A stretch of 12,244 nucleotides of DNA from a virus. Lineage: Duplodnaviria; Heunggongvirae; Uroviricota; Caudoviricetes. How positions within the stretch are numbered: position 1 is the first letter of the stretch; each line of letters opens with the position of its first letter. The notes under the pieces are model-generated. The model did no database searches. It had not been told where the DNA came from and was given only the letters and a program-made list of their open reading frames with translations. Position numbers and translations under genes: made by a program. This document shows positions 1 through 12,244 of the stretch, piece by piece. The stretch lies in the IMG/VR virus record IMGVR_UViG_2681813321_000010; one strand, 5' to 3'.

Positions 1-140
1 TGCCTGGTGCCTCCAGGTGACGTTAACCAGTTAACAATTAACGCCGGATACAGAGAATCCACCCATAACACTGTTTTTGGTTTTAACTGTTCCGCGTGCG
101 CTCAGCCGCATTCACCGCATCACAAAATTCACTTTAAAAA

Positions 141-193
141 CGGCGGCAGAGCAGTCACGGAGTAAAACTGATACCGCCAAACGTCACCAGAAA
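141..193 (-). ncRNA. dicF: DicF sRNA (ftsZ-targeting antisense sRNA), copy 1
   Basis: The reverse complement of 141-193 reads tttctggtgacgtttggcggtatcagttttactccgtgactgctctgccgccg. I recognise this as the 53-nt DicF of E. coli Qin. A T-run on the minus strand (136-140) follows it. Its position downstream of ydfC matches K-12 synteny. Confidence 0.85.
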
Positions 194-533
194 ATTGATA
201 ACAGAGGGCGTTGCAGCGGGGTTGTCGCTTAAGCGTATGGTCAACCTGACAACCCGGTGTCCTCAACGGGGAAGGAATAACCCCGCCATACTTACCGCCG
301 CGCCATTTCGCGGAGTGCCACAACCGGAAGCGCACGGTCGACGAAAATTTAACGACAGGCTATCTATGAACCAGCTACCTCGCCGTGCGCTTTCGCGTTA
401 TGGTCTGACTTTTCATGGAAATATCCTTTCAGTAAACTGTCAGTGCCGGATGCTCACCCATGTCCGGCGCACGCACTCCACCTCACCCGTGGAGAACTCC
501 TTAATTACCAACCTTAGCTTCGTTGGTTAGCTA
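194..533 (-). other. Untranslated ydfC-dicF spacer of the polycistronic precursor transcript (DicF is processed out of it)
   Basis: It lies between the ydfC stop and the DicF 5' end on the transcribed strand. The only ORFs are R/W/C-rich and overlap dicF. In K-12, DicF is released from the ydfABC-dicF-dicB transcript by RNase E/III processing (recalled knowledge). Confidence 0.5.
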
Positions 534-752
534 TTAACGCGGGTATGTAATCATTCTGGCAATGCTTAATGCCGCTGCTTTTTCCAGCCTGGTGATATCC
601 TGCTCCAGAGCGGACAGATTTTCAGCCTGCTTAGCCCTGGCTTCATTGGCCCATTTCAGATCCTGCGCTGCATTAATTTTCTGGCGCATCCACTCATAAA
701 GTTCATCATCGGTATAGTCTGGCGAGATGATGACGGGTTCTCGTTTCTGCAT
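534..752 (-). CDS. ydfC: YdfC-like small prophage protein (72 aa)
   Basis: ORF-track translation MQKREPVIISPDYTDDELYEWMRQKINAAQDLKWANEARAKQ..., recognised as Qin YdfC. A GAGGA SD precedes the ATG on the minus strand. Synteny is ydfA-ydfB-ydfC-dicF. Confidence 0.85.
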   Translation of the reverse strand: MQKREPVIISPDYTDDELYEWMRQKINAAQDLKWANEARAKQAENLSALEQDITRLEKAAALSIARMITYPR

Positions 753-781
753 ACTGATTCCTCGCGGTGCTGCTTCGCTTA

Positions 782-910
782 TCAGCCGTTAGATTTTGCC
801 GAGCTGGAAAGCGCCTGTTTAAACTCACTGAAGCTGAGAGCTTCTTCGCCTTCGGCAAGGCCTTCGAAGTATTCTTCGTAAGCCTTTTCCATGATTGTGT
901 CGAAATCCAT
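782..910 (-). CDS. ydfB: YdfB-like small protein (42 aa); below the ORF-track length cut-off
   Basis: Hand translation of the minus strand from ATG 910-908 gives MDFDTIMEKAYEEYFEGLAEGEEALSFSEFKQALSSSAKSNG, with stop TGA at 784-782. The start lies 1 nt after the ydfA stop. It matches my recollection of Qin YdfB. Confidence 0.8.
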   Translation of the reverse strand: MDFDTIMEKAYEEYFEGLAEGEEALSFSEFKQALSSSAKSNG

Positions 911-911
911 A

Positions 912-1067
912 TCACTCACCTGAGTTTCTTTCCAGCCAGCGACGGGCACCATTTTCGGTTTTAAACGTTTTGCTTCTGGTATACGTCATCGCGGTAAACG
1001 TGCCGTCCTGGTTGGGAAACACGCCGTACACCAGAGATTCGTTGTTGCCAAGATCGATAGTATCCAT
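912..1067 (-). CDS. ydfA: YdfA-like protein (DUF1391 type, 51 aa from the internal Met)
   Basis: MDTIDLGNNESLVYGVFPNQDGTFTAMTYTRSKTFKTENGARRWLERNSGE. A GAGGT SD sits 4 nt upstream of ATG 1067-1065. The ORF-track start at 1121 has no SD, and K-12 YdfA is 51 aa. Confidence 0.8.
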   Translation of the reverse strand: MDTIDLGNNESLVYGVFPNQDGTFTAMTYTRSKTFKTENGARRWLERNSGE

Positions 1068-1144
1068 GCTGACCTCATTTCCCCTTAACGCTGGGGTAGC
1101 GGAACTGTTTGCTGAGAACACCGTGCGGTGTGTTGATGCAAATA

Positions 1145-1199
1145 AGATTAGCCATGGCTAACATATAGGTCAAGTGATTTTGTATGTTATGGCTAACAT
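1145..1199 (-). promoter_or_regulatory. Promoter and operators of the ydfABC-dicF operon, module 1
   Basis: On the minus strand: -35 TTGACC (1173-1168), a 17-nt spacer, then -10 TAATCT (1150-1145). The palindrome TTAGCCATGGCTAA (1148-1161) lies in the spacer/-10. A second imperfect site, TGTATGTTATGGCTAACA (1181-1198), lies upstream of the -35. Confidence 0.55.
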
Positions 1200-1211
1200 G
1201 ATTGATGTGGT

Positions 1212-1242
1212 AAAAGATAACTCATTGATGATGTTATCTTTT
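1212..1242 (-). terminator. Hairpin overlapping the dicA stop codon; possible (bidirectional) intrinsic terminator
   Basis: Perfect 10-bp inverted repeat aaaagataac (1212-1221) / gttatctttt (1233-1242) with an 11-nt loop. T/U-rich ends are present on both strands. Confidence 0.4.
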
Positions 1243-1641
1243 ATTTGTCCGCTGACGGGCTTTTAGTAATTCTTCAAAGAGTTTATTGAAGTTTTTTACT
1301 CGAGCTCGCATTTCGGCGAGCTGGGTATCCTGTTCTGATTCTGGCAGTGCATTAAACAGCTCAAGGAGCTCTAGTTCTTTGGGGGATAAGGCAACTGGCT
1401 TCTCAACAGGTGGTGTTGGTTGCTTGTCTTCATCGCCAAATAGAATCCATGTTGGTGAGCATTGCAATACTTTGCTGAGGGCAAAAAGGTTCTTCCCTGT
1501 AGGTTCACTATCATCCCGTTCCCATTGTGATACAGACACATGGGAGATTTTCAGGGCTTTAGCAAGAGACCTTTGGGTGTGTTTGAGGTTTTTCCGACGA
1601 TACCTAATGCGTTCGCCGATAGTTAAATTTTTTGTTTCCAT
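1234..1641 (-). CDS. dicA: DicA, XRE-family HTH prophage repressor (135 aa)
   Basis: Translation METKNLTIGERIRYRRKNLKHTQRSLAKALKISHVSVSQWER..., recognised as K-12 Qin DicA. It is divergent from dicC across an operator-rich spacer. There is no S24 peptidase domain. No SD precedes the ATG. Confidence 0.9.
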   Translation of the reverse strand: METKNLTIGERIRYRRKNLKHTQRSLAKALKISHVSVSQWERDDSEPTGKNLFALSKVLQCSPTWILFGDEDKQPTPPVEKPVALSPKELELLELFNALPESEQDTQLAEMRARVKNFNKLFEELLKARQRTNKR

Positions 1642-1643
1642 AG

Positions 1644-1709
1644 TTAGCTAATGCTAAATCGTATTGACTATGTTTTTGTTAACATCTATTTTGTTAGTTA
1701 TGACTAACA
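1644..1709. promoter_or_regulatory. dicA/dicC divergent control region, module 1
   Basis: Palindrome TTAGCTAATGCTAA (1644-1657) lies 2 nt from the dicA ATG. The rightward promoter is TTGACT (1664-1669), a 17-nt spacer, then TATTTT (1687-1692). A perfect 18-bp palindrome TGTTAGTTATGACTAACA (1692-1709) lies at or after the -10. Confidence 0.6.
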
Positions 1710-1724
1710 ATAAAGGTGTTTTAA

Positions 1725-1955
1725 ATGCTTAAAACTGACGCTCTTTTGTATTTCGGTTCAAAAACAAAACTTGCACAAGCAGCAGGTATTCGTTTGGCTT
1801 CGCTTTATAGCTGGAAAGGGGATTTAGTTCCCGAAGGTCGCGCGATGCGTCTACAGGAGGCATCTGGCGGGGAGCTTCAGTATGATCCCAAAGTTTATGA
1901 TGAATATCGTAAGACGAAGCGGGCGGGGCGGTTGAACAATGAAAATCACTCCTGA
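1725..1955 (+). CDS. dicC: DicC, Cro-like / YdaS-family HTH regulator (76 aa)
   Basis: Translation MLKTDALLYFGSKTKLAQAAGIRLASLYSWKGDLVPEGRAMRLQEASGGELQYDP..., recognised as K-12 DicC. It occupies the Cro position opposite the repressor. Confidence 0.9.
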   Translation: MLKTDALLYFGSKTKLAQAAGIRLASLYSWKGDLVPEGRAMRLQEASGGELQYDPKVYDEYRKTKRAGRLNNENHS

Positions 1956-2460
1956 ACAGGCTCGTGAGGCTCTGGATGCCTGGATATGTCGACCAGGAAT
2001 GACACAGGAGCAGGCGACGATATTAATCACTGAAGCATTCTGGGCTTTGAAAGAGCGCCCGAACATCGATGTTCAGCGTGTCACAGATGAAGGTGGCGCG
2101 GTTGATCAGCGAGCGCTTGGCGTTAATCGAGTGAAGATATTCGAACGCTGGAAGGCTATCGACACCAGGGATAAGCGTGAAAAGTTCACGGCGCTAGTGC
2201 CTGCGATTATGGAGGCTATCCGGATTAGTGATTTCAGGTTGTATCGTGAGATCAGTGATGGAAAAAGTATTACGTACATGATCGCCGGGTTAAATAAAGA
2301 ATATGGCGATGTGGTGGAATCCGGACTGCTTTTTGCAGATCCTGCCGTTGTAGATCGTGAAACTGACGAACTTATAGAAAAAGCAATTGCTTTCAAGCTT
2401 GCGTATCGACAGCAATACCAACAAAAAGCTGGATGGAATTATGAGTCTTCTTTTTGCTGA
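1939..2460 (+). CDS. YdaT-family (CII-like) early regulator, 173 aa
   Basis: The ORF overlaps the dicC stop by 17 nt. The segment KIFERWKAIDTRDKREKFTALVPAIMEAI resembles the Rac YdaT region as I recall it. Its position after the Cro-like gene equals the CII/YdaT slot of CP-933P/Rac-type prophages. Confidence 0.6.
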   Translation: MKITPEQAREALDAWICRPGMTQEQATILITEAFWALKERPNIDVQRVTDEGGAVDQRALGVNRVKIFERWKAIDTRDKREKFTALVPAIMEAIRISDFRLYREISDGKSITYMIAGLNKEYGDVVESGLLFADPAVVDRETDELIEKAIAFKLAYRQQYQQKAGWNYESSFC

Positions 2461-3406
2461 ACGCCCACTGGTTATAAACACGCAGCTGGCAATGAAAATT
2501 GGCTTAAACGAAGCCATTGTTTTGCAACAACTGCACTACTGGTTGAGAGATACCAACTCCGGCATGGAATGTGATGGTGTTCGCTGGATTTATAACACAA
2601 CGGAACAATGGCTGGAACAGTTCCCATTCTGGTCAGAGTCAACGTTAAAGCGCGCGTTTGCAAGTCTGAAAACGCTGGGGCTTTTGCGTTGTGAAAAGCT
2701 CAATAAATCAAAGCGCGATATGACCAATTTCTACACGATCAACTACGGGAGCGAGCTTTTAGATGGTGGCAAATTGAGCGAATCCATCGGTTTAAAATGC
2801 GCCGCTCCATCAGGTCAAAATGACACGATGGAAGAGGTCAAAATGAAACGCTCCATTGGTTCAAAACGACTCAATGTCATCGGGTCAAAATGGCCTGATG
2901 ATCTTACAGAGAATACAACAGAGATTACTACAGAGAATAAAAAGACTTCTCGTCCGGAAGCTTCGCAACCGGACCCGCAGACGGTTGAACAGGATTTTTT
3001 AACCCGACACCCTGACGCGGTTGTGTTCAGTGCGAAAAAACGCCAGTGGGGCAGCCAGGAAGATTTGGCGTGTGCGCAGTGGATCTGGGGGCGAATCGTG
3101 AGTCTTTACGAGCAGGCCGCCAGCGATGATGGCGAGATTTCGCGACCGAAAGAACCCAACTGGACCGCATGGGCCAACGACGTGCGCACAATGCGGATGC
3201 TGGATGGCAGAACTCACAGACAAATTTGTGAAATGTTTGGTCGGGTGCAGCGGGATCCATTCTGGGTAAAAAATATCATGAGTCCGTCAAAGCTTCGCGA
3301 AAAATGGGATGAACTGGTTATCCGCCTGGGGCGTTCGTCTGTACAGCGTTGTGTGAATCATATTTCTGAGCCGGATACCGAAATTCCGCCGGGCTTCAGG
3401 GGGTAA
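2441..3406 (+). CDS. Replication initiator, lambda O-like (321 aa from ATG 2441; the ORF is open from 2387)
   Basis: The N-terminal region looks like a winged helix (MSLLFAERPLVINTQLAMKIGLNEAIVLQQLHYWL...). An iteron array plus AT-rich tract lies inside the linker-coding part, as in lambda O/ori. The ATG at 2441 overlaps the upstream stop by 20 nt. Confidence 0.7.
   Translation: MSLLFAERPLVINTQLAMKIGLNEAIVLQQLHYWLRDTNSGMECDGVRWIYNTTEQWLEQFPFWSESTLKRAFASLKTLGLLRCEKLNKSKRDMTNFYTINYGSELLDGGKLSESIGLKCAAPSGQNDTMEEVKMKRSIGSKRLNVIGSKWPDDLTENTTEITTENKKTSRPEASQPDPQTVEQDFLTRHPDAVVFSAKKRQWGSQEDLACAQWIWGRIVSLYEQAASDDGEISRPKEPNWTAWANDVRTMRMLDGRTHRQICEMFGRVQRDPFWVKNIMSPSKLREKWDELVIRLGRSSVQRCVNHISEPDTEIPPGFRG
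2783..2945. repeat. Putative ori, module 1: five iterons plus an AT-rich tract inside the O-like gene
   Basis: The core GGT(C/T)(A/T)AAA(A/C)(T/G)G... (ggtttaaaatg, ggtcaaaatg x3, ggttcaaaacg) begins at 2789, 2813, 2836, 2858 and 2883, with 22-25 bp spacing. Several cores are preceded by tccatc/tccatt. The tract atcttacagagaatacaacagagattactacagagaataaaaa follows (2901-2943). Confidence 0.6.
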
Positions 3407-3446
3407 GTGTTAATTTCTGGTCATGAGGTAATTTTCAGGAGGGCTT

Positions 3447-3869
3447 GTGGCAAAAGTTTTTACACAAGAAGAGCGGGAAAAAATTAAAGGGCAGGTTGTT
3501 GAACTCGTACGCCGGAGTGGGCGTGAGACGTTACGGCAACTGGAAGTCAAGACAGGTGCGACAAGATATCTGATGAGCGTTCTCGCAAGAGAGCTGGTTG
3601 CCAGCGGCGATGTATACAACTCTGGTTACGGGTTATTCCCGTCTGAACAGGCGCGTAAGGACTGGCAAAATGCCCGTAAAAAGCTCTCAAGGGCAAAGCT
3701 GAAGGAACCATCTGCGGTTGATCCGGACCTTATCTGGTCATTACCTGACGGAGAAATACGTCGCTACGACAGGCGTCAGAACATAATCTGTCGCGAGTGC
3801 CGGAAGAGTGAAGTTATGCAGCGCATACTAGCATTCTATCAGGGAAATGCTCGATATTTATTGAAGTGA
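3447..3869 (+). CDS. Conserved early-region protein of unknown function (140 aa, GTG start)
   Basis: A CAGGAGGG SD lies 3 nt upstream of GTG 3447. The paralogue in module 2 is highly similar, with mostly conservative changes. I recognise no family. Confidence 0.6.
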   Translation: MAKVFTQEEREKIKGQVVELVRRSGRETLRQLEVKTGATRYLMSVLARELVASGDVYNSGYGLFPSEQARKDWQNARKKLSRAKLKEPSAVDPDLIWSLPDGEIRRYDRRQNIICRECRKSEVMQRILAFYQGNARYLLK

Positions 3870-4121
3870 TGAGATTAAAGTTTATTAGTTCAGATATTGA
3901 TTGGCTCTTTTGTGGAGTAGGGTAGAGTTAGTGTGTTTGTCTGCTTGGTGCCAGCAGCGGATATGTTTAACAACAGAAAGCATTCAGCATGGTTAGTGGA
4001 TTTGCAAAGTGGATTAGGATTTGAGAAACTTTGATGAAGTTGTAAAGCTTGTTTCTATAAAAATAGAAATTTAACTAATAGTTAAACACACCTCCAGCTT
4101 CATTGAAAAGGATTATTAGCT

Positions 4122-4547
4122 ATGATTGATCCACTTATTAGAAACTTACAGAGTGATATTGCACTACTCCAGCTTTATATCGCGCAACGCAAACAGGCAG
4201 GCTTTCATGACATGGAAAGAATAATTGAGTCATTGACCATCTTTATGTTTCGCGCGCTGAAAATGGGTGAACTGGTAAACATGAATCAGATTAAAGTTAA
4301 TTTTCCCGCCATTGATTTAGCTGATAATAAAAACATGATAGCAGTTCAAGTTACTACGAATGCAAGTCCAGCAAAAATTAAAAAAACTATCGAATCTTTT
4401 GAGAAAATAAATGAAATAGGAGAGAGTCTGAAAGATAAATACTCTACTTTATATATTTTTGGTTTTAACTGTTCCGCGTGCGCTCAGCCGCATTCACCGC
4501 ATCACAAAATTCACTTTAAAAACGGCGGCAGAGCAGTCACGGAGTAA
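4122..4547 (+). pseudogene. SMEK-domain protein N-terminal fragment, truncated at the module junction (4455/4456)
   Basis: AT-rich ORF. The motif ...VNFPAIDLADNKNMIAVQVTTNASPAKIKKTIESF... matches the SMEK-domain signature as I recall it (N..AIDL.D...IA.QVT....KI..T...F). After about codon 112 the frame runs into dicF-flanking repeat DNA and stops at 4547, antisense to dicF. Confidence 0.55.
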
Positions 4548-4575
4548 AACTGATACCGCCAAACGTCACCAGAAA
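4523..4575 (-). ncRNA. dicF: DicF sRNA, copy 2 (sequence identical to copy 1)
   Basis: Same 53-nt sequence and T-run as copy 1. It lies inside the perfect repeat. Confidence 0.85.
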
Positions 4576-4915
4576 ATTGATAACAGAGGGCGTTGCAGCG
4601 GGGTTGTCGCTTAAGCGTATGGTCAACCTGACAACCCGGTGTCCTCAACGGGGAAGGAATAACCCCGCCATACTTACCGCCGCGCCATTTCGCGGAGTGC
4701 CACAACCGGAAGCGCACGGTCGACGAAAATTTAACGACAGGCTATCTATGAACCAGCTACCTCGCCGTGCGCTTTCGCGTTATGGTCTGACTTTTCATGG
4801 AAATATCCTTTCAGTAAACTGTCAGTGCCGGATGCTCACCCATGTCCGGCGCACGCACTCCACCTCACCCGTGGAGAACTCCTTAATTACCAACCTTAGC
4901 TTCGTTGGTTAGCTA

Positions 4916-5134
4916 TTAACGCGGGTATGTAATCATTCTGGCAATGCTTAATGCCGCTGCTTTTTCCAGCCTGGTGATATCCTGCTCCAGAGCGGACAGA
5001 TTTTCAGCCTGCTTAGCCCTGGCTTCATTGGCCCATTTCAGATCCTGCGCTGCATTAATTTTCTGGCGCATCCACTCATAAAGTTCATCATCGGTATAGT
5101 CTGGCGAGATGATGACGGGTTCTCGTTTCTGCAT
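4916..5134 (-). CDS. ydfC: YdfC-like protein, copy 2 (identical 72 aa)
   Basis: The ORF-track translation is identical to 534-752. Confidence 0.85.
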   Translation of the reverse strand: MQKREPVIISPDYTDDELYEWMRQKINAAQDLKWANEARAKQAENLSALEQDITRLEKAAALSIARMITYPR

Positions 5135-5163
5135 ACTGATTCCTCGCGGTGCTGCTTCGCTTA

Positions 5164-5292
5164 TCAGCCGTTAGATTTTGCCGAGCTGGAAAGCGCCTGT
5201 TTAAACTCACTGAAGCTGAGAGCTTCTTCGCCTTCGGCAAGGCCTTCGAAGTATTCTTCGTAAGCCTTTTCCATGATTGTGTCGAAATCCAT
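5164..5292 (-). CDS. ydfB: YdfB-like protein, copy 2 (42 aa)
   Basis: Coordinates are copy 1 +4382. The stop tca was verified at 5164-5166. The DNA is identical. Confidence 0.8.
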   Translation of the reverse strand: MDFDTIMEKAYEEYFEGLAEGEEALSFSEFKQALSSSAKSNG

Positions 5293-5293
5293 A

Positions 5294-5449
5294 TCACTCA
5301 CCTGAGTTTCTTTCCAGCCAGCGACGGGCACCATTTTCGGTTTTAAACGTTTTGCTTCTGGTATACGTCATCGCGGTAAACGTGCCGTCCTGGTTGGGAA
5401 ACACGCCGCATACCAGAGATTCGTTGTTGCCAAGATCGATAGTATTCAT
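5294..5449 (-). CDS. ydfA: YdfA-like protein, copy 2 (51 aa; MNTIDLG..., 2 aa differences from copy 1)
   Basis: Internal Met of ORF 5294-5503. It differs from copy 1 at D2N and Y14C. Confidence 0.8.
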   Translation of the reverse strand: MNTIDLGNNESLVCGVFPNQDGTFTAMTYTRSKTFKTENGARRWLERNSGE

Positions 5450-5526
5450 GCTGACCTCATTTCCCCTTAACGCCGGGGTAGCGGAACTGTTTGCTGAGAA
5501 CACCGTGCGGTGTCTTGGTGGAGATT

Positions 5527-5580
5527 AATTTAGAATAACCTAACAAATGTAGCAAGTATTTTTGTTAGATTGGTCTAACA
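5527..5580 (-). promoter_or_regulatory. Promoter and operators of the ydfABC-dicF operon, module 2
   Basis: On the minus strand: -35 TTGCTA (5555-5550), a 17-nt spacer, then -10 TAAATT (5532-5527). TTAGAATAACCTAACA (5530-5545) lies in the spacer/-10. A perfect 18-bp palindrome TGTTAGATTGGTCTAACA (5563-5580) lies upstream of the -35. The architecture matches module 1 but the bases differ. Confidence 0.55.
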
Positions 5581-5616
5581 AAAAGAGTGAGGGAATCTAA
5601 GTATCTGAAAGGAGTG

Positions 5617-6024
5617 TTATTTTATTGATTTGTTTTTACGTGCTTTAAGCATTTCTTCGAAGAGTTTATTGAAATTCTCTACTCTTGCGCGCATTTCAGA
5701 CAGTAAGGCTTCCTGCTCGGAGGAGGGAAGAGCATCGAATAATTCGATCAATTCTTTGTGGCTGGGAGTTAACTCGGTTTCCACATGAAGTTCTTGTGCT
5801 GGCACTGGTGCCTTGTCTTCGTCACCAAACATTAGCCATGTAGGCGAGCACTTCAGCGCATCAGCTAAAGCAAATAACCGCTTCCCGACCGGTTGGGTTT
5901 CGTCTCTTTCCCATTGTGAAATTGTGACGTGAGCTACCCCAGCGAGGCGTGCAGCTTCTCGTTGTGTTAGGCGTAATTCTTTTCGTCGTGCCAGAACTCG
6001 CTGGCCTAGGGTTCTTGTATCCAT
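5617..6024 (-). CDS. DicA-family XRE HTH repressor, second allele (135 aa)
   Basis: Same length and position as DicA. By eye it is roughly half identical: MDTRTLGQRVLARRKELRLTQREAARLAGVAHVTISQWER... versus DicA. The shared blocks are CSPTW..FGDEDK and MRARV.NFNKLFEE.LKAR. Confidence 0.85.
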   Translation of the reverse strand: MDTRTLGQRVLARRKELRLTQREAARLAGVAHVTISQWERDETQPVGKRLFALADALKCSPTWLMFGDEDKAPVPAQELHVETELTPSHKELIELFDALPSSEQEALLSEMRARVENFNKLFEEMLKARKNKSIK

Positions 6025-6026
6025 AG

Positions 6027-6091
6027 TTAGGTAATTCTAATTTTTCTTGACTTAGGTATCCCGCGCACATTACTGTTAGGAATATCTAACA
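6027..6091. promoter_or_regulatory. Repressor/Cro-like divergent control region, module 2
   Basis: TTAGGTAATTCTAA (6027-6040) lies 2 nt from the repressor ATG. The rightward promoter is TTGACT (6047-6052), an 18-nt spacer, then TACTGT (6071-6076). An 18-bp site TGTTAGGAATATCTAACA (6074-6091) overlaps the -10. Confidence 0.55.
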
Positions 6092-6104
6092 AGAGGGGGC
6101 TTTG

Positions 6105-6332
6105 ATGCTTAAAGTTGACGCAATTACTTTTTTTGGCAGCAAAACAAAACTTGCCAATGCCGCAGGAGTGAAACTGGCAAGTGTTGCTGCATGGGGGGAA
6201 CTGGTTCCTGAAGGTCGCGCGATGCGCCTGCAAGAGGCATCCGGCGGGGAACTTCAGTACGACCCCAAAGTTTATGACGAATATCGTAAGGCAAAGCGGG
6301 CGGGGCGGTTGAACAATGAAAATCACCCCTGA
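6105..6332 (+). CDS. DicC/YdaS-family Cro-like regulator, second allele (75 aa from ATG 6105)
   Basis: An AGAGGGGG SD lies 5 nt upstream of ATG 6105; the ORF track starts at TTG 6102. The N-terminal HTH half is diverged from DicC. The C-terminal half (LVPEGRAMRLQEASGGELQYDPKVYDEYRK.KRAGRLNNENH) is nearly identical. Confidence 0.85.
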   Translation: MLKVDAITFFGSKTKLANAAGVKLASVAAWGELVPEGRAMRLQEASGGELQYDPKVYDEYRKAKRAGRLNNENHP

Positions 6333-6837
6333 ACAGGTTTGTGAGGCTCTGGATGCCTGGGTATGCCGACCAGGAATGACACAGGAGCAGGCGACGATAT
6401 TAATCACGGAAGCATTCTGGGCTCTGAAAGAACGCCCGAACATCGATGTTCAACGCGTCACGTTTAATGATGGCGAGGTTGATCAACGGGCGTTGGGCGT
6501 TAACCGGGTGAAGATATTCGAACGCTGGAAAGCTATCGACACCAGGGATAAGCGGGAAAAATTCACGGCGCTGATTCCGGCAATTATGGAGGCTATCCGG
6601 ATCAGCGATTTCAGGTTGTATTGTGAAATTACTGACGGAAAAAGCATTACGTACATGATCGCCGGGTTAAACAAAGAATATGGTGATGTGGTGGAGTCCG
6701 GGCTGCTTTTTGCGGATCCATCTGTTGTGGAACGTGAGACTGACGAGCTTATAGAAAAAGCTATTGCTTTCAAGCATGCGTATCGTCAGCAATACCAACA
6801 AAAAGCTGGATGGAATTATGAGCCTTCTTTTTGCTGA
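6316..6837 (+). CDS. YdaT-family (CII-like) early regulator, copy 2 (173 aa)
   Basis: Paralogue of 1939-2460 with few substitutions. It has the same 17-nt overlap with the upstream gene. Confidence 0.6.
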   Translation: MKITPEQVCEALDAWVCRPGMTQEQATILITEAFWALKERPNIDVQRVTFNDGEVDQRALGVNRVKIFERWKAIDTRDKREKFTALIPAIMEAIRISDFRLYCEITDGKSITYMIAGLNKEYGDVVESGLLFADPSVVERETDELIEKAIAFKHAYRQQYQQKAGWNYEPSFC

Positions 6838-7783
6838 ACGCCCACTGGTTATAAACACACAGCTTGCGATGAAGATTGGCTTAAATGAAGCCATTGTGTT
6901 GCAGCAGTTGCATTACTGGTTGAGAGATACCAGTTCCGGTATGGAATGTGACGGGGTTCGCTGGATTTATAACACAACAGAACAATGGCTGGAACAGTTC
7001 CCGTTCTGGTCAGAGTCAACGTTAAAACGCGCATTTGCAAGTCTGAAAACGCTGGGGCTTTTGCGTTGCGAAAAGCTCAACAAATCAAAGCGTGATATGA
7101 CTAATTTTTACACGATTAATTACGAGAGTGAGCTTTTAGATGGTGGCAAAGTGAGCGAATCCATCAGGTCAAAATGCGCCGCTCCATCGGGTCAAAATGA
7201 CACGATGGAAGAGGTCAAAATGGCACGCTCCATTGGTTCAAAACGACCCAATGTCATCGGGTCAAAATGGCCTGATGATCTTACAGAGAATACAACAGAG
7301 ATTACTACAGAGAATAAAAACACTTCTCGTCCGGAAGCTTCGCAACCGGACCCGCAGACGGCTGAACAGGATTTTTTAACCCGACACCCTGACGCGGTTG
7401 TGTTCAGTGCGAAAAAACGCCAGTGGGGAAGTCAGGAAGATTTGGCGTGCGCACAGTGGATCTGGGGACGAATCGTGAGTCTTTACGAGCAGGCTGCCAG
7501 CGATGATGGCGAGATCACGCGACCGAAAGAACCAAACTGGACCGCATGGGCCAATGACGTGCGCACAATGCGGATGCTGGATGGCAGAAGCCACAGACAA
7601 ATTTGCGAAATGTTTGGTCGGGTACAGCGAGATCCATTCTGGGTAAAAAACATCATGAGCCCGTCAAAGCTTCGCGAAAAATGGGACGACCTGGTCATCC
7701 GCCTGGGGCGTTCACCTGTACAGTGTTGTGTGAATCATATTTCTGAACCGGATACCGAAATTCCGCCTGGTTTCAGGGGATAA
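6818..7783 (+). CDS. Replication initiator, lambda O-like, copy 2 (321 aa)
   Basis: By my count there are 14 aa differences from copy 1 over 321 aa. It is intact and contains the second iteron array. Confidence 0.7.
   Translation: MSLLFAERPLVINTQLAMKIGLNEAIVLQQLHYWLRDTSSGMECDGVRWIYNTTEQWLEQFPFWSESTLKRAFASLKTLGLLRCEKLNKSKRDMTNFYTINYESELLDGGKVSESIRSKCAAPSGQNDTMEEVKMARSIGSKRPNVIGSKWPDDLTENTTEITTENKNTSRPEASQPDPQTAEQDFLTRHPDAVVFSAKKRQWGSQEDLACAQWIWGRIVSLYEQAASDDGEITRPKEPNWTAWANDVRTMRMLDGRSHRQICEMFGRVQRDPFWVKNIMSPSKLREKWDDLVIRLGRSPVQCCVNHISEPDTEIPPGFRG
7160..7322. repeat. Putative ori, module 2: five iterons plus an AT-rich tract
   Basis: ggtcaaaatg cores start near 7167, 7190, 7213 and 7260, with ggttcaaaacg at 7235. 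The same acagagaatacaacagagattactacagagaataaaaa tract follows. Confidence 0.6.
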
Positions 7784-7823
7784 GTGGTGATTTTAGGGCA
7801 TAAAGTAATGTTCAGGAGGACTT

Positions 7824-8231
7824 ATGGCAAAAGTATTTACACAGGAAGAGCGGGAAAAAATTAAAGGACAGGTGGTGGAACTCGTGCGCCAGAGCGGTCG
7901 TGAGACGTTACGGCAACTGGAAGCTAAAACAGGTGCGACAAGATATCTGATGAGCGTTCTTGCCAGAGAGCTGGTTGCCAGTGGTGATGTATATCACTCT
8001 GGCTATGGGGTGTTCCCGTCAGAACGGGCTCGTAAGGACTGGCAAAACGCCCGCAAAAAACTCTCGAGGGCAAAGGTGAAGAAACCTGTTGTGGTTGATC
8101 CGGGCCTTATCTGGACATTACCCGACGGAGAAATACGCCGCTACGACAGGCGTATGAACATAATCTGTCGCGAGTGCCGGAAGAGCGAAGTTATGCAGCG
8201 TGTATTGGCGTTCTATCAGGGATATGCCTAG
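7824..8231 (+). CDS. Conserved early-region protein of unknown function, copy 2 (135 aa, ATG start)
   Basis: A CAGGAGGA SD is present. It is the paralogue of 3447-3869 and differs mainly at the extreme C-terminus. Confidence 0.6.
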   Translation: MAKVFTQEEREKIKGQVVELVRQSGRETLRQLEAKTGATRYLMSVLARELVASGDVYHSGYGVFPSERARKDWQNARKKLSRAKVKKPVVVDPGLIWTLPDGEIRRYDRRMNIICRECRKSEVMQRVLAFYQGYA

Positions 8232-8599
8232 AATTGTCACAGGTAATGAAATTAAAGAGTATTGGTTCGGATATGAATTGACATTTTCGCGGCACAGAGC
8301 TAAAAATAGCCTACTTGTTGGTTTTGTGTGAAAAGCAGACATTTTGAGGCTCAGGATTTGTTATCAAATAAGACCAATACTTATCTATATTAATACACAT
8401 TAAATACTGTGCAATACATTATTGCATTTTATTAGATAAGCGATATTTAGGGAAAAGAAAAGTCATAGAAAACAGGCCGCTATTTGTTGTTGGATTTTAT
8501 AGGCTATATCTAGATTATCTTGCCACTGCGGTCTCTGTTTACCTAACAGCTTGGGCTTCTTTGCATGCAAGTTTGTAATAACAAGAGTAATCAAACGGA

Positions 8600-9631
8600 A
8601 TGTCTATTAATCCTAAACTTAAGCGTATCGCGCGACGCTATCCAGCGTTATTCCAATATGAGTCCCCCTATATGGCAAGAAAATTAATAATATTCGGCAA
8701 CGGTCTCGGTATGGCTTTAGATCCTGCTCACTTCTCCTTAGACAGAGCGTTGGAAGAAATTTGGCATCGCCCCAATTTTTTAAAAGATATCCACAAGCAA
8801 CTTATCGAGCGTTGTCTTCAGCGGCAAGGTCCACCAGAAGGAGAACATGAGTTGGATACCCTTCACCAGGCTGTCACATATTGTAAAGCTCTTGCTCAAA
8901 TTGGAGAGGGGAACGTGCATTGGCTTACTGAAGATGGACTAAACTTCCCCAAAATTACCGCCACTTATATTCACAAAGTTGCAACCAGGTTGCATAATTA
9001 CGATAAAGGTTTGCCACAAAGATTCGAAAATGCGCTTGTGGAGTTTGTAAAGAACACACACTCACATATCGCGACATTAAACTATGACAAATTATTATAC
9101 AATTCATTCATAGATAATGATATATTCAACGGGTATGATGGGGTTTTAGTTGATGGGATGCTAAGCCACGGATTTTCCTCTGCAGCGCTCGAACGGAAAT
9201 ACAATCGTAGGTTTGGTTATTATTTGCACTTGCATGGTTCACCACTATTTATTAATCAGCATGAAAATGTTTTAAAACTTTCACGCTCACAACTTACTCT
9301 TGACATAGATGAACCTAGTGAGCATATAGTGTTAACTCATATAAAAAGAAAACCGTCAGTTATAGCAGCATCTAATGTTCTTTCTACGTACTGGGATTAT
9401 TTGCAGTTTGCATTATTTGAATCAGAAGAAATAATATTGTTTGGTTACTCTGGTCTCGATATTCACCTTAACCTGCTTATTCGACCTTACCTAACCTCTA
9501 AGCCTTTAAGAGTAATTGAGTGGAGCGGTGCTGGTGAACAAAACGCTCGTGAGATATATTGGAAAAACCAGTTGAGACGGGAAGTTACTGTAATTAGGTT
9601 GGATAACATCACTGATTTTATTGATTGGTAG
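8600..9631 (+). CDS. Stand-alone SIR2-like (DHS-like NAD-binding fold, SIR2_2-type) protein, 343 aa; candidate defence NADase
   Basis: Four motifs occur in the order typical of prokaryotic SIR2_2 proteins. These are LIIFGNGLG (aa 29-37, cf. GAGxS), IATLNYDKLL (aa 157-166, cf. TTNYD), YLHLHGSP (aa 208-215, cf. xHLHG) and IILFGYSGLD (aa 278-287, cf. GYSxxD). The gene and its 370-bp upstream region are visibly AT-rich relative to the flanks. Confidence 0.6.
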   Translation: MSINPKLKRIARRYPALFQYESPYMARKLIIFGNGLGMALDPAHFSLDRALEEIWHRPNFLKDIHKQLIERCLQRQGPPEGEHELDTLHQAVTYCKALAQIGEGNVHWLTEDGLNFPKITATYIHKVATRLHNYDKGLPQRFENALVEFVKNTHSHIATLNYDKLLYNSFIDNDIFNGYDGVLVDGMLSHGFSSAALERKYNRRFGYYLHLHGSPLFINQHENVLKLSRSQLTLDIDEPSEHIVLTHIKRKPSVIAASNVLSTYWDYLQFALFESEEIILFGYSGLDIHLNLLIRPYLTSKPLRVIEWSGAGEQNAREIYWKNQLRREVTVIRLDNITDFIDW

Positions 9632-9701
9632 CGCAATGCGAAGTTAAAGAGGCAGCCTCATATTTATCAGAGCTGGTGTACGTCCAATACAGGAGGTTAT
9701 C

Positions 9702-9791
9702 GTGCTGGTTCTCAAATGCGCGCTGGCTATTGCGGCTGTAGTGGCAATTTATTGTCTTGCTATTGTTCTTATGGATCGCCTTTCTGATTGA
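9702..9791 (+). CDS. Candidate 29-aa hydrophobic peptide (VLVLKCALAIAAVVAIYCLAIVLMDRLSD)
   Basis: A perfect AGGAGG SD (9691-9696) lies 5 nt upstream of GTG 9702. The peptide has a single predicted TM-like helix plus a charged tail. No terminator is visible between it and the SIR2-like gene. Confidence 0.4.
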   Translation: MLVLKCALAIAAVVAIYCLAIVLMDRLSD

Positions 9792-9887
9792 TTTTATATT
9801 GGCGAGGTGACGGGAGTTAAGTAGAATTGCTGCGGGTGCTTGAGGCTGTCTGCCTCGGGCATGCCACCGTAAGGCAGACAGAGAAAA

Positions 9888-9955
9888 GCCCCAGTTAACA
9901 TTACGCGTCCTGCAAGACGCTTAACATTAATCTGAGGCCCAATCTATGCTTCACA
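9888..9955 (-). ncRNA. sok: Sok-like antisense RNA (approximate ends)
   Basis: On the minus strand: promoter TTGCCT (9989-9984), a 17-nt spacer, then TAACCT (9966-9961). The transcript would be antisense to the mok start and leader. It contains the hairpin gcgtc/gacgc (9905-9920) and then a cttttctc tail. Confidence 0.4.
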
Positions 9956-10158
9956 AACGTAGGTTAGCCTCTTACGCGCCGAAAGGCAAGGAGAAGCAGG
10001 CTATGAAGCAGCAAAAGGCGATGTTAATCGCCCTGATCGTCATCTGTTTAACCGTCATAGTGACGGCACTGGTAACGAGGAAAGACCTCTGCGAGGTACG
10101 AATCCGAACCGGCCAGACGGAGGTCGCTGTCTTCACAGCTTACGAACCTGAGGAGTAA
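9946..10158 (+). CDS. mok: Mok-like regulatory reading frame (70 aa, in-frame N-terminal extension of Hok)
   Basis: ORF MLHKRRLASYAPKGKEKQA followed by Hok. The arrangement resembles chromosomal mokC/hokC-type loci. Confidence 0.6.
   Translation: MLHKRRLASYAPKGKEKQAMKQQKAMLIALIVICLTVIVTALVTRKDLCEVRIRTGQTEVAVFTAYEPEE
10003..10158 (+). CDS. hokD: Hok-family type I toxin, HokD/RelF-like (51 aa)
   Basis: MKQQKAMLIALIVICLTVIVTALVTRKDLCEVRIRTGQTEVAVFTAYEPEE, recognised as K-12 HokD. A GGAG SD lies inside mok. Confidence 0.9.
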   Translation: MKQQKAMLIALIVICLTVIVTALVTRKDLCEVRIRTGQTEVAVFTAYEPEE

Positions 10159-10226
10159 GAGACCAGGCGGGGGAGAAATCCCTCGCCACCGCTGATGTGT
10201 CAGGCATCCTCAACGCACCCGCACTT

Positions 10227-10258
10227 AACCCGCTTCGGCGGGTTTTTGTTTTTATTTT
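10227..10258 (+). terminator. Rho-independent terminator of the hok mRNA
   Basis: Stem (aa)cccgc / gcggg(tt) with loop ttcg (10229-10242), followed by tttttgtttttatttt. Confidence 0.8.
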
Positions 10259-10374
10259 CAACGCATTTGAAGTTCTGGACGGTGTCGGAATAGAATCAAA
10301 AATACTTAAGTAGCGCGCAGGGATAAGAGGGATGGTCCCTTAAAGGGGAGAGCTAATTATCCGGAAGGATTCTG

Positions 10375-10626
10375 ATGATGAACATCGAAGAACTGCGTAA
10401 AATTTTTTGTGAAGATGGCCTCTATGCTGTGTGCGTTGAAAATGGAAATATTGTTAGTCATTACCGCATTGTGTGTTTGCGAAAGAATGGGGCTGCGTTA
10501 ATTAATTTTGTGGATGGTCGAGTGACAGACGGATTTATCTTGCGCGAAGGTGAGTTTGTCACTTCATTACAGGCACTGAAAGAGATCGGAATAAAAGCTG
10601 GCTTTTCTGCTTTTTCAGAAGAATAA
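10375..10626 (+). CDS. rem: Rem-like prophage protein (83 aa)
   Basis: MMNIEELRKIFCEDGLYAVCVENGN..., recognised as Qin Rem. A GGAAGGA SD is present. It lies next to hokD, as in K-12. Confidence 0.8.
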   Translation: MMNIEELRKIFCEDGLYAVCVENGNIVSHYRIVCLRKNGAALINFVDGRVTDGFILREGEFVTSLQALKEIGIKAGFSAFSEE

Positions 10627-10692
10627 ACTCATCTACAATCTTGCGCGGGGCTGAACTCCCGCTGAGTAACACCGTGCCGCCGGAGGAAACCG

Positions 10693-10971
10693 ATGGCACG
10701 CAACGCAAAATATTACAATCATGATAATTCGACCGTTCTTGCCCACACGCACGAGCGGTATTCTCACGCATTTAAGTCAGACTGGTACCAGCATCCCCCA
10801 TGCACTGAAGAACAGGCCGAATGGCTCATTCAGTGTTACCGCAGGCGCGGATGCGAGGTTAAAAAAGCCCTTAGCCTCGACTACCGTCACTGGATAATCT
10901 CCGTCGGGCTTCCTTACTCCGAACGCCCACCGCGTCTGTCCCGCACATTCCAGCAACGCATCTGGAGGTAA
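10693..10971 (+). CDS. Hypothetical prophage protein (92 aa)
   Basis: A GGAGGA SD lies 6 nt upstream. The stop is 1 nt before the ydfU GTG start, suggesting translational coupling. I recognise no family. Confidence 0.55.
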   Translation: MARNAKYYNHDNSTVLAHTHERYSHAFKSDWYQHPPCTEEQAEWLIQCYRRRGCEVKKALSLDYRHWIISVGLPYSERPPRLSRTFQQRIWR

Positions 10972-10972
10972 C

Positions 10973-12022
10973 GTGCGGGTATTACTTCGACCTGTTCTGG
11001 TACCGGAACTCGGGCTGGTGGTCCTTAAGCCCGGTCGCGAATCACTGCCGGTTTTTCATTGCGGCAGGGTGCTGGTGGAGCCGGAACCGAAAAGCATGCG
11101 CGGTCTGCCGTCCGGAGTCGTCCCTGCCGTTCGCCAGCCGCTGGCGGAGGATAAATCATTACTGCCATTTTTCAGCGATGAGCGTGTGATTCGTGCTGCT
11201 GGCGGCGCTGGCGCACTGTCTGACTGGCTCCTGCGTCATGTCAAATCCTGCCAGTGGCCTCATGGTGACTACCATCACAGTGAAACCGTCATACATCGTT
11301 ATGGTACCGGCGCAATGGTGTTGTGCTGGCACTGCGACAACCAGCTGCGCGACCAGACCTCCGAATCACTCGGGCAACTTGCTCACCAAAACCTGTCTGC
11401 ATGGATGATTGACGTCATACGCCATGCAATGAATGGCTCGCAGGAACGGGAATTATCGCTGGCTGAATTATCCTGGTGGGCGATCCGCAATCAGGTGGCG
11501 GACGCGCTACCGGAAGCGGTATTACGTCGTTCGCTGGGGTTGCGTGCGGAAAAAATCCGCTCAATGTACCGTGAAAGCGACATCGTACCGGGAGAGCAGA
11601 CCGCCACCAGCATACTGAAACAGCGCACAAAAAATCTTGCGCCGCTGCCTCACGCCCACCAGCAACAGAACCCGCCACAGGAAAAGACGGTGGTCAGCAT
11701 TGCTGTTGATCCGGAGTCTCCGGAATCTTTAATGAAGCGACCTAAACGTCGCCGTTGGGTAAATGAGAAATATACGCGCTGGGTAAAGACACAGCCGTGT
11801 GCGTGTTGTGGTAAGCCAGCCGACGATCCCCATCACCTGATTGGTCATGGTCAGGGCGGAATAGGGACAAAAGCCCACGATATTTTCACGCTACCGTTGT
11901 GCCGGGAGCATCACAACGAACTTCATGCTGATCCGCTGGCATTTGAAGAAAAGCATGGTTCCCAGATTGATTTAATTTTTCGTTTTCTTGATCGCGCCTT
12001 TGCAACCGGCGTGCTCGGGTAA
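10973..12022 (+). CDS. ydfU: YdfU, DUF968-family protein (349 aa) with a C-terminal Cys/His HNH-like motif
   Basis: MRVLLRPVLVPELGLVVLKPGRES..., recognised as Qin YdfU. The C-terminus reads CACCGKPADDPHHLIGHG...CREHHNELH. It has a GTG start preceded by GGAGG. Confidence 0.85.
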   Translation: MRVLLRPVLVPELGLVVLKPGRESLPVFHCGRVLVEPEPKSMRGLPSGVVPAVRQPLAEDKSLLPFFSDERVIRAAGGAGALSDWLLRHVKSCQWPHGDYHHSETVIHRYGTGAMVLCWHCDNQLRDQTSESLGQLAHQNLSAWMIDVIRHAMNGSQERELSLAELSWWAIRNQVADALPEAVLRRSLGLRAEKIRSMYRESDIVPGEQTATSILKQRTKNLAPLPHAHQQQNPPQEKTVVSIAVDPESPESLMKRPKRRRWVNEKYTRWVKTQPCACCGKPADDPHHLIGHGQGGIGTKAHDIFTLPLCREHHNELHADPLAFEEKHGSQIDLIFRFLDRAFATGVLG

Positions 12023-12034
12023 AAGAGGTTACTG

Positions 12035-12244
12035 ATGCGTATAGAGTTTGTTTTGCCTTACCCGCCGACGGTGAACACCTACTGGCGACGTCGTGGCAGC
12101 ACATATTTTGTGTCAAAAGCCGGTGAGCGTTATCGCCGGGATGTGGCACTTATTGTTCGCCAGCAGCGGCTGAAATTAAACCTGTCCGGAAGGCTGGCGA
12201 TAAAGATTATTGCAGAGCCACCGGATAAGCGCCGCCGCGACCTG
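12035..12244 (+). CDS. rusA: RusA-like Holliday-junction resolvase, 5' partial (runs off the window)
   Basis: Hand translation gives MRIEFVLPYPPTVNTYWRRRGSTYFVSKAGERYRRDVALIV...EPPDKRRRDL. The PDxRRRDL motif is typical of RusA. An AAGAGG SD lies at 12023-12028. Confidence 0.75.
   Translation, partial: MRIEFVLPYPPTVNTYWRRRGSTYFVSKAGERYRRDVALIVRQQRLKLNLSGRLAIKIIAEPPDKRRRDL

Follow-up and report, generated by a model that had tools for sequence, protein, structure and literature searches.

How might a SIR2 enzyme that consumes nicotinamide adenine dinucleotide (NAD+) be kept silent, and then be switched on, when no other protein domain travels with it? This question is raised by a gene at positions 8672 to 9631 of a 12,244-nucleotide (nt) stretch of Caudoviricetes DNA (IMG/VR record IMGVR_UViG_2681813321_000010; the whole of this stretch is hereafter called the window). 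SIR2 effectors that degrade NAD+ (NADases) are normally paired with a sensor, be it HerA, a TIR or SLOG component, a prokaryotic Argonaute (pAgo), a STAND module or a large C-terminal domain. The family to which this gene belongs consists of the effector domain alone, and yet it is conserved, mobile and apparently tolerated on expression. We find that Qin/Rac-like lambdoid prophages carry the gene as one-gene accessory cargo (a 'moron') in a slot whose content varies. In our estimate there is an even chance that its product works alone as an NAD+-consuming anti-phage effector (an NAD+ glycohydrolase), shielding the lysogen against other phages; we infer both the defence role and the NADase activity from fold similarity and genomic context. 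This reading draws on a fold close to that of immune SIR2 proteins, on the absence of the zinc module of canonical sirtuins, and on the behaviour of the gene as a mobile unit in prophages, integrons and defence islands.

The gene lies within an intact open reading frame (ORF) at 8600..9631 (+), which encodes 343 amino acids (aa) when counted from its first ATG, and its parts are as follows.

8672..9631 (+): SIR2-family coding sequence, 319 aa, with the start used in RefSeq WP_000101550.1 and in nearly all homologues.
8600..8671 (+): in-frame extension of 24 codons that yields the 343-aa ORF, open in enterobacterial alleles.
8693..8710 (+): FGNGLG, glycine-rich Rossmann loop, residues 32-37 in the 343-aa numbering and 8-13 in the 319-aa numbering.
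9074..9088 (+): TLNYD motif, residues 159-163 (343-aa numbering).
9227..9238 (+): HLHG motif, residues 210-213 (343-aa numbering).
9440..9460 (+): FGYSGLD motif, residues 281-287 (343-aa numbering), running on into a conserved D-x-H-x-N.

A first-pass annotation, made from the letters of the window, had noticed these four SIR2_2-type motifs in the 343-aa ORF and had singled out Asn161 and His212 as the positions of a catalytic pair; all four motifs were found where it had placed them, and both residues were confirmed, with Asp163 as an addition. The same annotation had given the span as 8232-9631. Its ORF stands, but 8232-8599 is non-coding upstream sequence and the protein is probably 319 rather than 343 aa long, the probable coding sequence being 8672..9631 with its start at Met25. 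We take these limits because the extension is weakly constrained, is interrupted by stop codons in Serratia and lacks a start codon in Klebsiella. WP_000101550.1, labelled 'SIR2 family protein' in RefSeq, has 319 aa and starts at Met25 (window position 8672), and homologues are 316-325 aa long in almost all cases, starting at the equivalent Met. Enterobacterial alleles keep the frame of the extension uninterrupted with a loose motif (RxALRYPxLFQ), at a ratio of non-synonymous to synonymous differences (pN/pS) of ~0.55, as against a substitution-rate ratio (dN/dS) of 0.06-0.14 in the core. A structure model of the 343-aa form has a mean predicted local distance difference test score (pLDDT) of 68, with ~55 over the extension, although its alignment is shallow and it says little on this point. 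More likely, the 24 codons belong to a 5' leader or form a tail under weak constraint.

The fold was then compared with known proteins. Pfam SIR2_2 (PF13289) is matched at 26.1 bits against a cut-off of 24.5 (E-value (E) 1e-5, residues 156-302), which is a marginal pass. The AlphaFold2 model of the 319-aa protein (pLDDT 90.7, predicted template modelling (TM) score, pTM, 0.89) predicts a SIR2-type Rossmann core, with SIR2 beginning at residue 4 and a helical insertion at about residues 23-130, and the SIR2 fold aligns across 271 of the 319 residues. Foldseek placed the SIR2 protein of SIR2-HerA first (E 6.6e-11), followed by DSR2 and then by CobB and sirtuins. Overall, the nearest proteins by fold are NAD+-hydrolysing immune SIR2s, namely the SIR2 of SIR2-HerA and then KomC, ThsA, Avs5 and DSR2, with canonical deacylating sirtuins farther away. 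A sequence-profile search of the Protein Data Bank (PDB) returned chance matches only (E 0.2) and no SIR2, so that it is fold comparison that provides the link to solved SIR2 structures; among the viral structures of BFVD there were weak sirtuin-type matches only (E ~5e-4, TM score ~0.4). Judging from the model, the protein has a SIR2 fold with catalytic Asn, Asp and His. The SIR2/DHS-like fold proposed at first reading is thus borne out by the SIR2_2 match above cut-off and the Foldseek matches to SIR2-HerA and DSR2, and so is the proposal that no sensor domain is fused to it, SIR2 being the sole domain. The 319-aa protein is predicted to be a defence-type SIR2 domain and nothing more.

In another reading, the protein is a protein-modifying, sirtuin-like enzyme (a deacylase or ADP-ribosyltransferase) whose target is a protein of the host or of a phage, and which serves in lysogenic conversion or regulation. 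Canonical sirtuins (CobB/Sir2Tm) carry a four-cysteine zinc-binding small domain that is absent here, its place in the model being taken by the helical insertion; Cys71 is the sole invariant cysteine among close homologues, and no cysteine reaches 90% conservation in the family representatives described below. We consider a protein-modifying role unlikely.

To define the family, we collected 794 relatives by word-indexed search. The 120 best are 56-99% identical and come from Pantoea, Serratia, Citrobacter, Klebsiella, Aeromonas, Vibrio, Pseudoalteromonas and other genera. When 1.84 billion cluster representatives were searched exhaustively with a profile, only 356 matched at E <= 1e-3; of the best 150 of these, 119 were full-length at 300-400 aa and the remainder were shorter fragments. 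Members are nearly always 310-370 aa long. This SIR2 family is small, sharply bounded and almost uniformly stand-alone. Conservation was read from the 119 representatives, at 29-66% identity. Asn137 and Asp139 of TLNYD (Asn161 and Asp163 in the 343-aa numbering) are kept in 98-100% of them and His188 of HLHG (His212) in 99%, and the full set kept in at least 95% comprises N137, Y138, D139, D161, H186, H188, G189, K202, K227, D263, H265 and N267. Furthermore, dN/dS against six enterobacterial alleles was 0.06-0.14 wherever it could be computed and was even over the helical insertion and the core, from which we conclude that the gene is functional.

The gene sits in an insert between two landmarks common to related prophages.

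8281..9648 (no strand assigned): inserted AT-rich islet of 1368 bp, 38.1% GC, between the DUF977 gene of the replication module and the hok/sok flank.
8281..8599 (+): AT-rich non-coding region upstream of the SIR2 coding sequence, containing a promoter-like site.
8278..8307 (+): promoter-like site TTGACA-18-AAAAAT, a consensus match only.
7824..8231 (+): left anchor of the slot, the DUF977 gene that closes the replication module (Pfam DUF977, E 1.7e-29).
9834..10158 (+): right anchor of the slot, a match to the Rfam 'sok' family (RF01794, 116 bits) together with the hokD coding sequence.

The islet is set at 8281..9648 because homology to a prophage of Escherichia coli C3, which carries different cargo, breaks off at 8280 and returns at 9649. 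It contains the SIR2 gene alone plus an AT-rich upstream stretch of ~320-390 nt. GC content is 37.8% for 8232-9631 but 48.2% on the left side of the islet (6764-8280) and 52.1% on the right (9649-12244), in agreement with an early estimate by eye of about 40% or less against about 50%. At the right anchor, the sok match (9834-10008, +) overlaps the start of the hokD coding sequence (10003-10158). Folding of 8560-8700 gave no sign of an RNA element in the leader (z = -0.12), and an Rfam scan of the window returned DicF (twice) and sok and nothing else. A discrete insert, a GC content of 38% against 48-52%, and other occupants in related prophages are what characterises a moron.

Occupants of the slot differ widely among E. 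coli prophages. K-12 Qin has relB, relE, ydfV and flxA beside hokD, as the first-pass annotation had stated, and strain C3 has a SMEK-domain gene, a methyltransferase and a hypothetical gene between DUF977 and hokD. Further cargo at this position includes the epoxyqueuosine reductase QueH, HAD and NUDIX hydrolases, an alpha/beta hydrolase, and an S-adenosylmethionine (SAM) methyltransferase with DUF7167. The proposal of a variable accessory or defence cargo site therefore holds as regards variability, but not as regards an exclusively defensive role, given QueH, the methyltransferases and the NUDIX and HAD proteins; the slot is a variable accessory site that is not exclusively defensive, and its mix suggests DNA-modification or counter-defence cargo besides defence. 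The full SIR2 segment occurs in 46 of 5426 complete E. coli genomes. In strain K_EC180 the SIR2 gene occupies the same slot of a prophage with a different repressor protein (annotated DicA), and IMG/VR prophages with an 89%-identical SIR2 allele likewise have it in the same slot beside a different repressor.

This slot bears on the possibility that the gene serves the prophage's own lytic/lysogenic programme or counter-defence, by remodelling NAD+/ADP-ribose pools or destroying NAD-derived immune signals. The gene follows the early-right replication genes directly and has their orientation, no terminator-like site separates it from them, and it shares its slot with cargo typical of counter-defence (QueH, methyltransferases, NUDIX and HAD proteins). 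However, the islet has its own AT-rich upstream region with the promoter-like site, homologues are found outside phages as integron cassettes and in chromosomal islands beside defence systems, and no report of a SIR2-fold counter-defence protein was found in the literature searched. We regard this explanation as distinctly unlikely, less so only than the loss of a partner, to which the neighbouring genes speak directly.

In that alternative, the gene would have come from a two-gene system, either SIR2-HerA-like or a toxin with a tiny antitoxin ORF, of which it would be an orphaned or decaying SIR2 subunit; by itself it would have no function or would only be toxic. The proteins closest in structure are indeed SIR2 subunits that depend on HerA, and 70 nt downstream there is a well-placed short ORF with a strong ribosome-binding site.

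9702..9791 (+): 29-aa hydrophobic ORF, VLVLKCALAIAAVVAIYCLAIVLMDRLSD, with a GTG start and therefore Met in vivo; unannotated.

An AGGAGG 6 nt upstream of its start constitutes that ribosome-binding site, and the ORF precedes hok/sok. It could be a small membrane peptide. The ORF was put forward at first as a possible partner gene; as a partner or antitoxin it is ruled out, since it sits outside the islet in a conserved hok-side flank that is 94% identical in the prophage with SMEK/methyltransferase cargo, and a flank common to prophages with other cargo, and without the SIR2 gene, leaves it no SIR2-specific role. We also clustered the ORFs that surround the gene at 80 genome loci, taking those of 60 aa or more up to 5 kb away. 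This revealed no neighbour conserved across the loci, only subclade-specific ones, and no HerA, TIR, pAgo or STAND partner, so that the expectation of no obvious partner gene holds both within the window and across the roughly 80 loci. In a census of the nearest genes, two per side at ~36 loci (134 proteins), HerA was not among the most frequent PADLOC or Pfam families.

Two groups of homologues depart from the stand-alone arrangement. At eight alpha-proteobacterial loci an upstream 204-aa ORF (at ~7380-8000 of each locus) abuts or overlaps the SIR2 start; members of that subclade (38-44% identity) always have it, its copies share 29-74% identity, no Pfam family matches it, and in this subclade alone it could be a partner gene. 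Its presence is a point for the orphan-subunit explanation. Secondly, two fused Vibrio forms, P0042 (506 aa) and P0044 (541 aa; L110 2990-4615), combine an N-terminal domain of 190-220 aa with the SIR2 core; the N-terminal domains are 30% identical to each other, with no Pfam match and no relative in the loci examined, and P0044 lies next to an integrase and a CHAT-domain protein. Against an orphaned subunit stand the lack of any HerA-like or other conserved neighbour at the 80 loci, the maintenance of the family as a stand-alone gene under a dN/dS of 0.06-0.14, and its movement as a one-gene integron cassette. The genomic context largely refutes this explanation, which we consider highly improbable.

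The contexts of homologues instead include many mobile and defence-associated settings, as would be expected if the protein were a stand-alone effector. The SIR2 gene is AT-richer than its flanks at 64 of 78 loci (median difference -9 points), and the nearest-gene census yielded type I restriction R subunits, DpdE, GajB, ZorD-like helicases, PbeA, resolvases and MvaT silencers in addition to housekeeping genes. In Vibrio parahaemolyticus, a homologue with 75% identity (P0026; L114 7851-9090) forms a single-gene integron cassette bounded by attC-like repeats, within an array of nine such repeats that adjoins an IntI-type integrase and also holds ccdAB and an Mrr-like cassette. The Citrobacter farmeri homologue lies on an integrase island with a DNA methylase on one side and Hachiman HamA/HamB on the other, and that of Serratia plymuthica has in its vicinity SoFic and a 680-aa protein that matches AAA_16 weakly. 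In Pantoea the homologue is beside an Ogr/Delta gene, with a ParE/Phd pair ~5 kb off, and in V. aestuarianus it adjoins an integrase and a CHAT protein. In addition, 21 viral contigs of IMG/VR carry the SIR2 gene, which occupies unrelated positions in at least three other phage types. One of these is an IMG/VR prophage (L103 8245-15154) in which a ~7-kb block of mostly unknown genes, including the SIR2 homologue, lies between the portal and scaffold genes; the prophage is Pseudomonas-like, judged by its similarity to genome loci L015-L020. This head-module site is an unusual position for cargo. In two more viral contigs, the homologue follows spanin and methyltransferase genes or precedes HNH, endolysin and terminase genes.

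Several observations weigh against a defence role. Purifying selection acts evenly along the protein, which lacks the fast-evolving region that a sensor of phage proteins would be expected to have. The DUF977-hokD slot also houses cargo that does not resemble defence, and a tblastn search of isolated phage genomes (INPHARED) found no match. Klebsiella and Aeromonas have homologues that lie among ordinary metabolic genes without marks of mobile elements. The same holds for Rhodobacteraceae homologues, which stand in a metabolic setting beside pncB or enolase: pncB (nicotinate phosphoribosyltransferase, NAD salvage) is directly upstream in five syntenic loci and enolase is upstream in five others, and these homologues, at 32-43% identity, lie 9-21 GC points under their flanks. 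On the side of a protein-modifying activity, SliP of Campylobacter jejuni, a DUF4917 SIR2-like protein, is reported to be a secreted, host-directed deacetylase (PMC10421069). Profile libraries add little: an NCBIfam scan gave no match and PHROGs gave only a chance-level match (E 0.3). PADLOC v2 gave matches of only 17-24 bits (Aga_SIR2, PDC-S21, SIR2) and no named family, which leaves standing the early view that no named defence family accounts for the gene. Finally, the literature searched contained no paper that names WP_000101550 or describes this SIR2 family; the available parts of the DefensePredictor supplements held no match to it, and a preprint on integron defence does not mention sirtuins.

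If the protein nonetheless acts as an NAD+-consuming effector, depletion of NAD+ would bring about abortive infection or growth arrest. Genes carried in integron cassettes are generally transcribed from the promoter of the integron, and the V. parahaemolyticus cassette is itself promoterless. Because no antitoxin-like partner accompanies the gene either, the protein would have to be tolerated until triggered, which points to its being held inactive at the protein level by auto-inhibition. A conserved cue of infection might then activate it by altering its oligomeric state or by causing it to form filaments, by analogy with PDB assemblies of ThsA, KomC, Avs5, FAM118B and SIR2-HerA, which are helical, filamentous or dodecameric. 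The even purifying selection along the protein suggests that such a cue is conserved (a metabolite, a host state or a conserved phage feature) and not a rapidly evolving phage protein. More tentatively than for the effector role as such, we propose that the protein could be the founding member of a single-gene immune family, that is, a sensor-less, domain-only SIR2 NADase spread as prophage cargo and integron cassettes, which would detect infection via its own helical insertion or via a conserved metabolite or host-state cue; we put this at somewhat under an even chance.

Were this the case, the family would show that a SIR2 enzyme can be gated and triggered without an accessory module, and it would include some of the smallest self-sufficient NAD+-depleting defence proteins. 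With 319 aa and a confident structure model, the protein would also be a convenient system for studying such a switch, and the prophages of pathogenic E. coli lineages (among them O55:H7, O111:H2 and porcine enterotoxigenic isolates) would gain a defence gene. Should it have no part in defence, the gene would be an ordinary accessory gene of a prophage, as yet uncharacterised.

The window as a whole has a composite make-up, being a head-to-tail join of two different Qin/Rac-like early regions, with a junction at 4456-4466 that comprises an 11-nt overlap. The E. coli C3 prophage matches bases 1-4466 at 99.2% identity, up to a point 345 nt into its SMEK-domain gene, such that a truncated 141-aa ORF (4122..4547) reads from that gene into foreign sequence. 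Bases 4456-12244 are 100% identical to a prophage of O111:H2 strain 12A, from the dicB-ydfC spacer onward. The DicF small RNA appears once per early region, at 141-192 (-) and 4523-4574 (-). The joined arrangement was absent from the complete E. coli genomes searched, and the junction reflects either a deletion between tandem prophages or an assembly chimera.

How does the protein compare with known SIR2 systems? SIR2-HerA/Nezha (PDB 8w9l, 8j4u, 8uae) is its closest fold match, yet at only 14-18% identity. The SIR2 chains of that system have ~360-400 residues in the PDB and act in complex with an adjacently encoded HerA ATPase, whereas no HerA gene is present in the window or islet, nor as a conserved neighbour at the 80 loci. 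A Sir2 homologue in Vassallo 2022, considered as a possible counterpart, is most likely part of PD-T7-2, whose second protein is HerA-like, and was set aside. ThsA of Thoeris has a SLOG sensor domain and requires the TIR protein ThsB, and KomC requires KomA and KomB. The window protein consists of SIR2 only, with no SLOG/STALD domain, and has no conserved TIR neighbour. Similarly, KomC of Kongming has a ThsA-like Sir2 domain, but the KomA deaminase and KomB HAM1-like genes are absent from the islet and from the conserved neighbours. As for the short pAgo systems with SIR2-APAZ (SPARSA), Aga_SIR2 is matched at 24 bits only and no pAgo occurs in the window or among conserved neighbours, and the fused STAND NTPase and sensor repeats of Avs5 (SIR2-STAND) are lacking. 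PADLOC's candidate PDC-S21 models, matched at 23 bits (E 8e-6) and restricted to residues 26-230, suggest by their sequence scores a distant relative and not a family to which the protein belongs.

Among single proteins, DSR1 and DSR2 are likewise single-gene SIR2 anti-phage proteins with related SIR2 domains (8wyd_B, E 7.9e-6). The large C-terminal region of DSR2 senses phage tail-tube protein. Most of the 953-residue DSR2 chain in the PDB lies outside SIR2, whereas the window protein is the SIR2 domain only and has no PADLOC Dsr match. DUF4917 (PF16263) also comprises stand-alone SIR2-like proteins, and some members of the present family give weak matches to it (18 bits for one homologue against a cut-off of 28); the window protein itself has no match at E <= 1. 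Human FAM118B is a distant, eukaryotic structural match to which no sequence-level relation was detected. Finally, the nearest concept in the literature searched is the 'sole-Sir2' protein (~440 aa). It is an NADase in vitro, and E. coli is protected from T2 and T4 by a close homologue of it; it has an extra N-terminal substructure ahead of a C-terminal Sir2 domain and is found inside type I-C cas operons (bioRxiv 10.1101/2024.12.27.630466). It resembles the window protein in that one small Sir2 protein is proposed to make up the whole defence system, and is set apart by its described size and architecture (~440 aa, as against 319 aa with SIR2 from residue 4). Sole-Sir2 thus provides an NADase precedent for a minimal stand-alone SIR2 effector. 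The window protein would fit the known class of SIR2 effectors as part of a new single-gene family without a named PADLOC counterpart.

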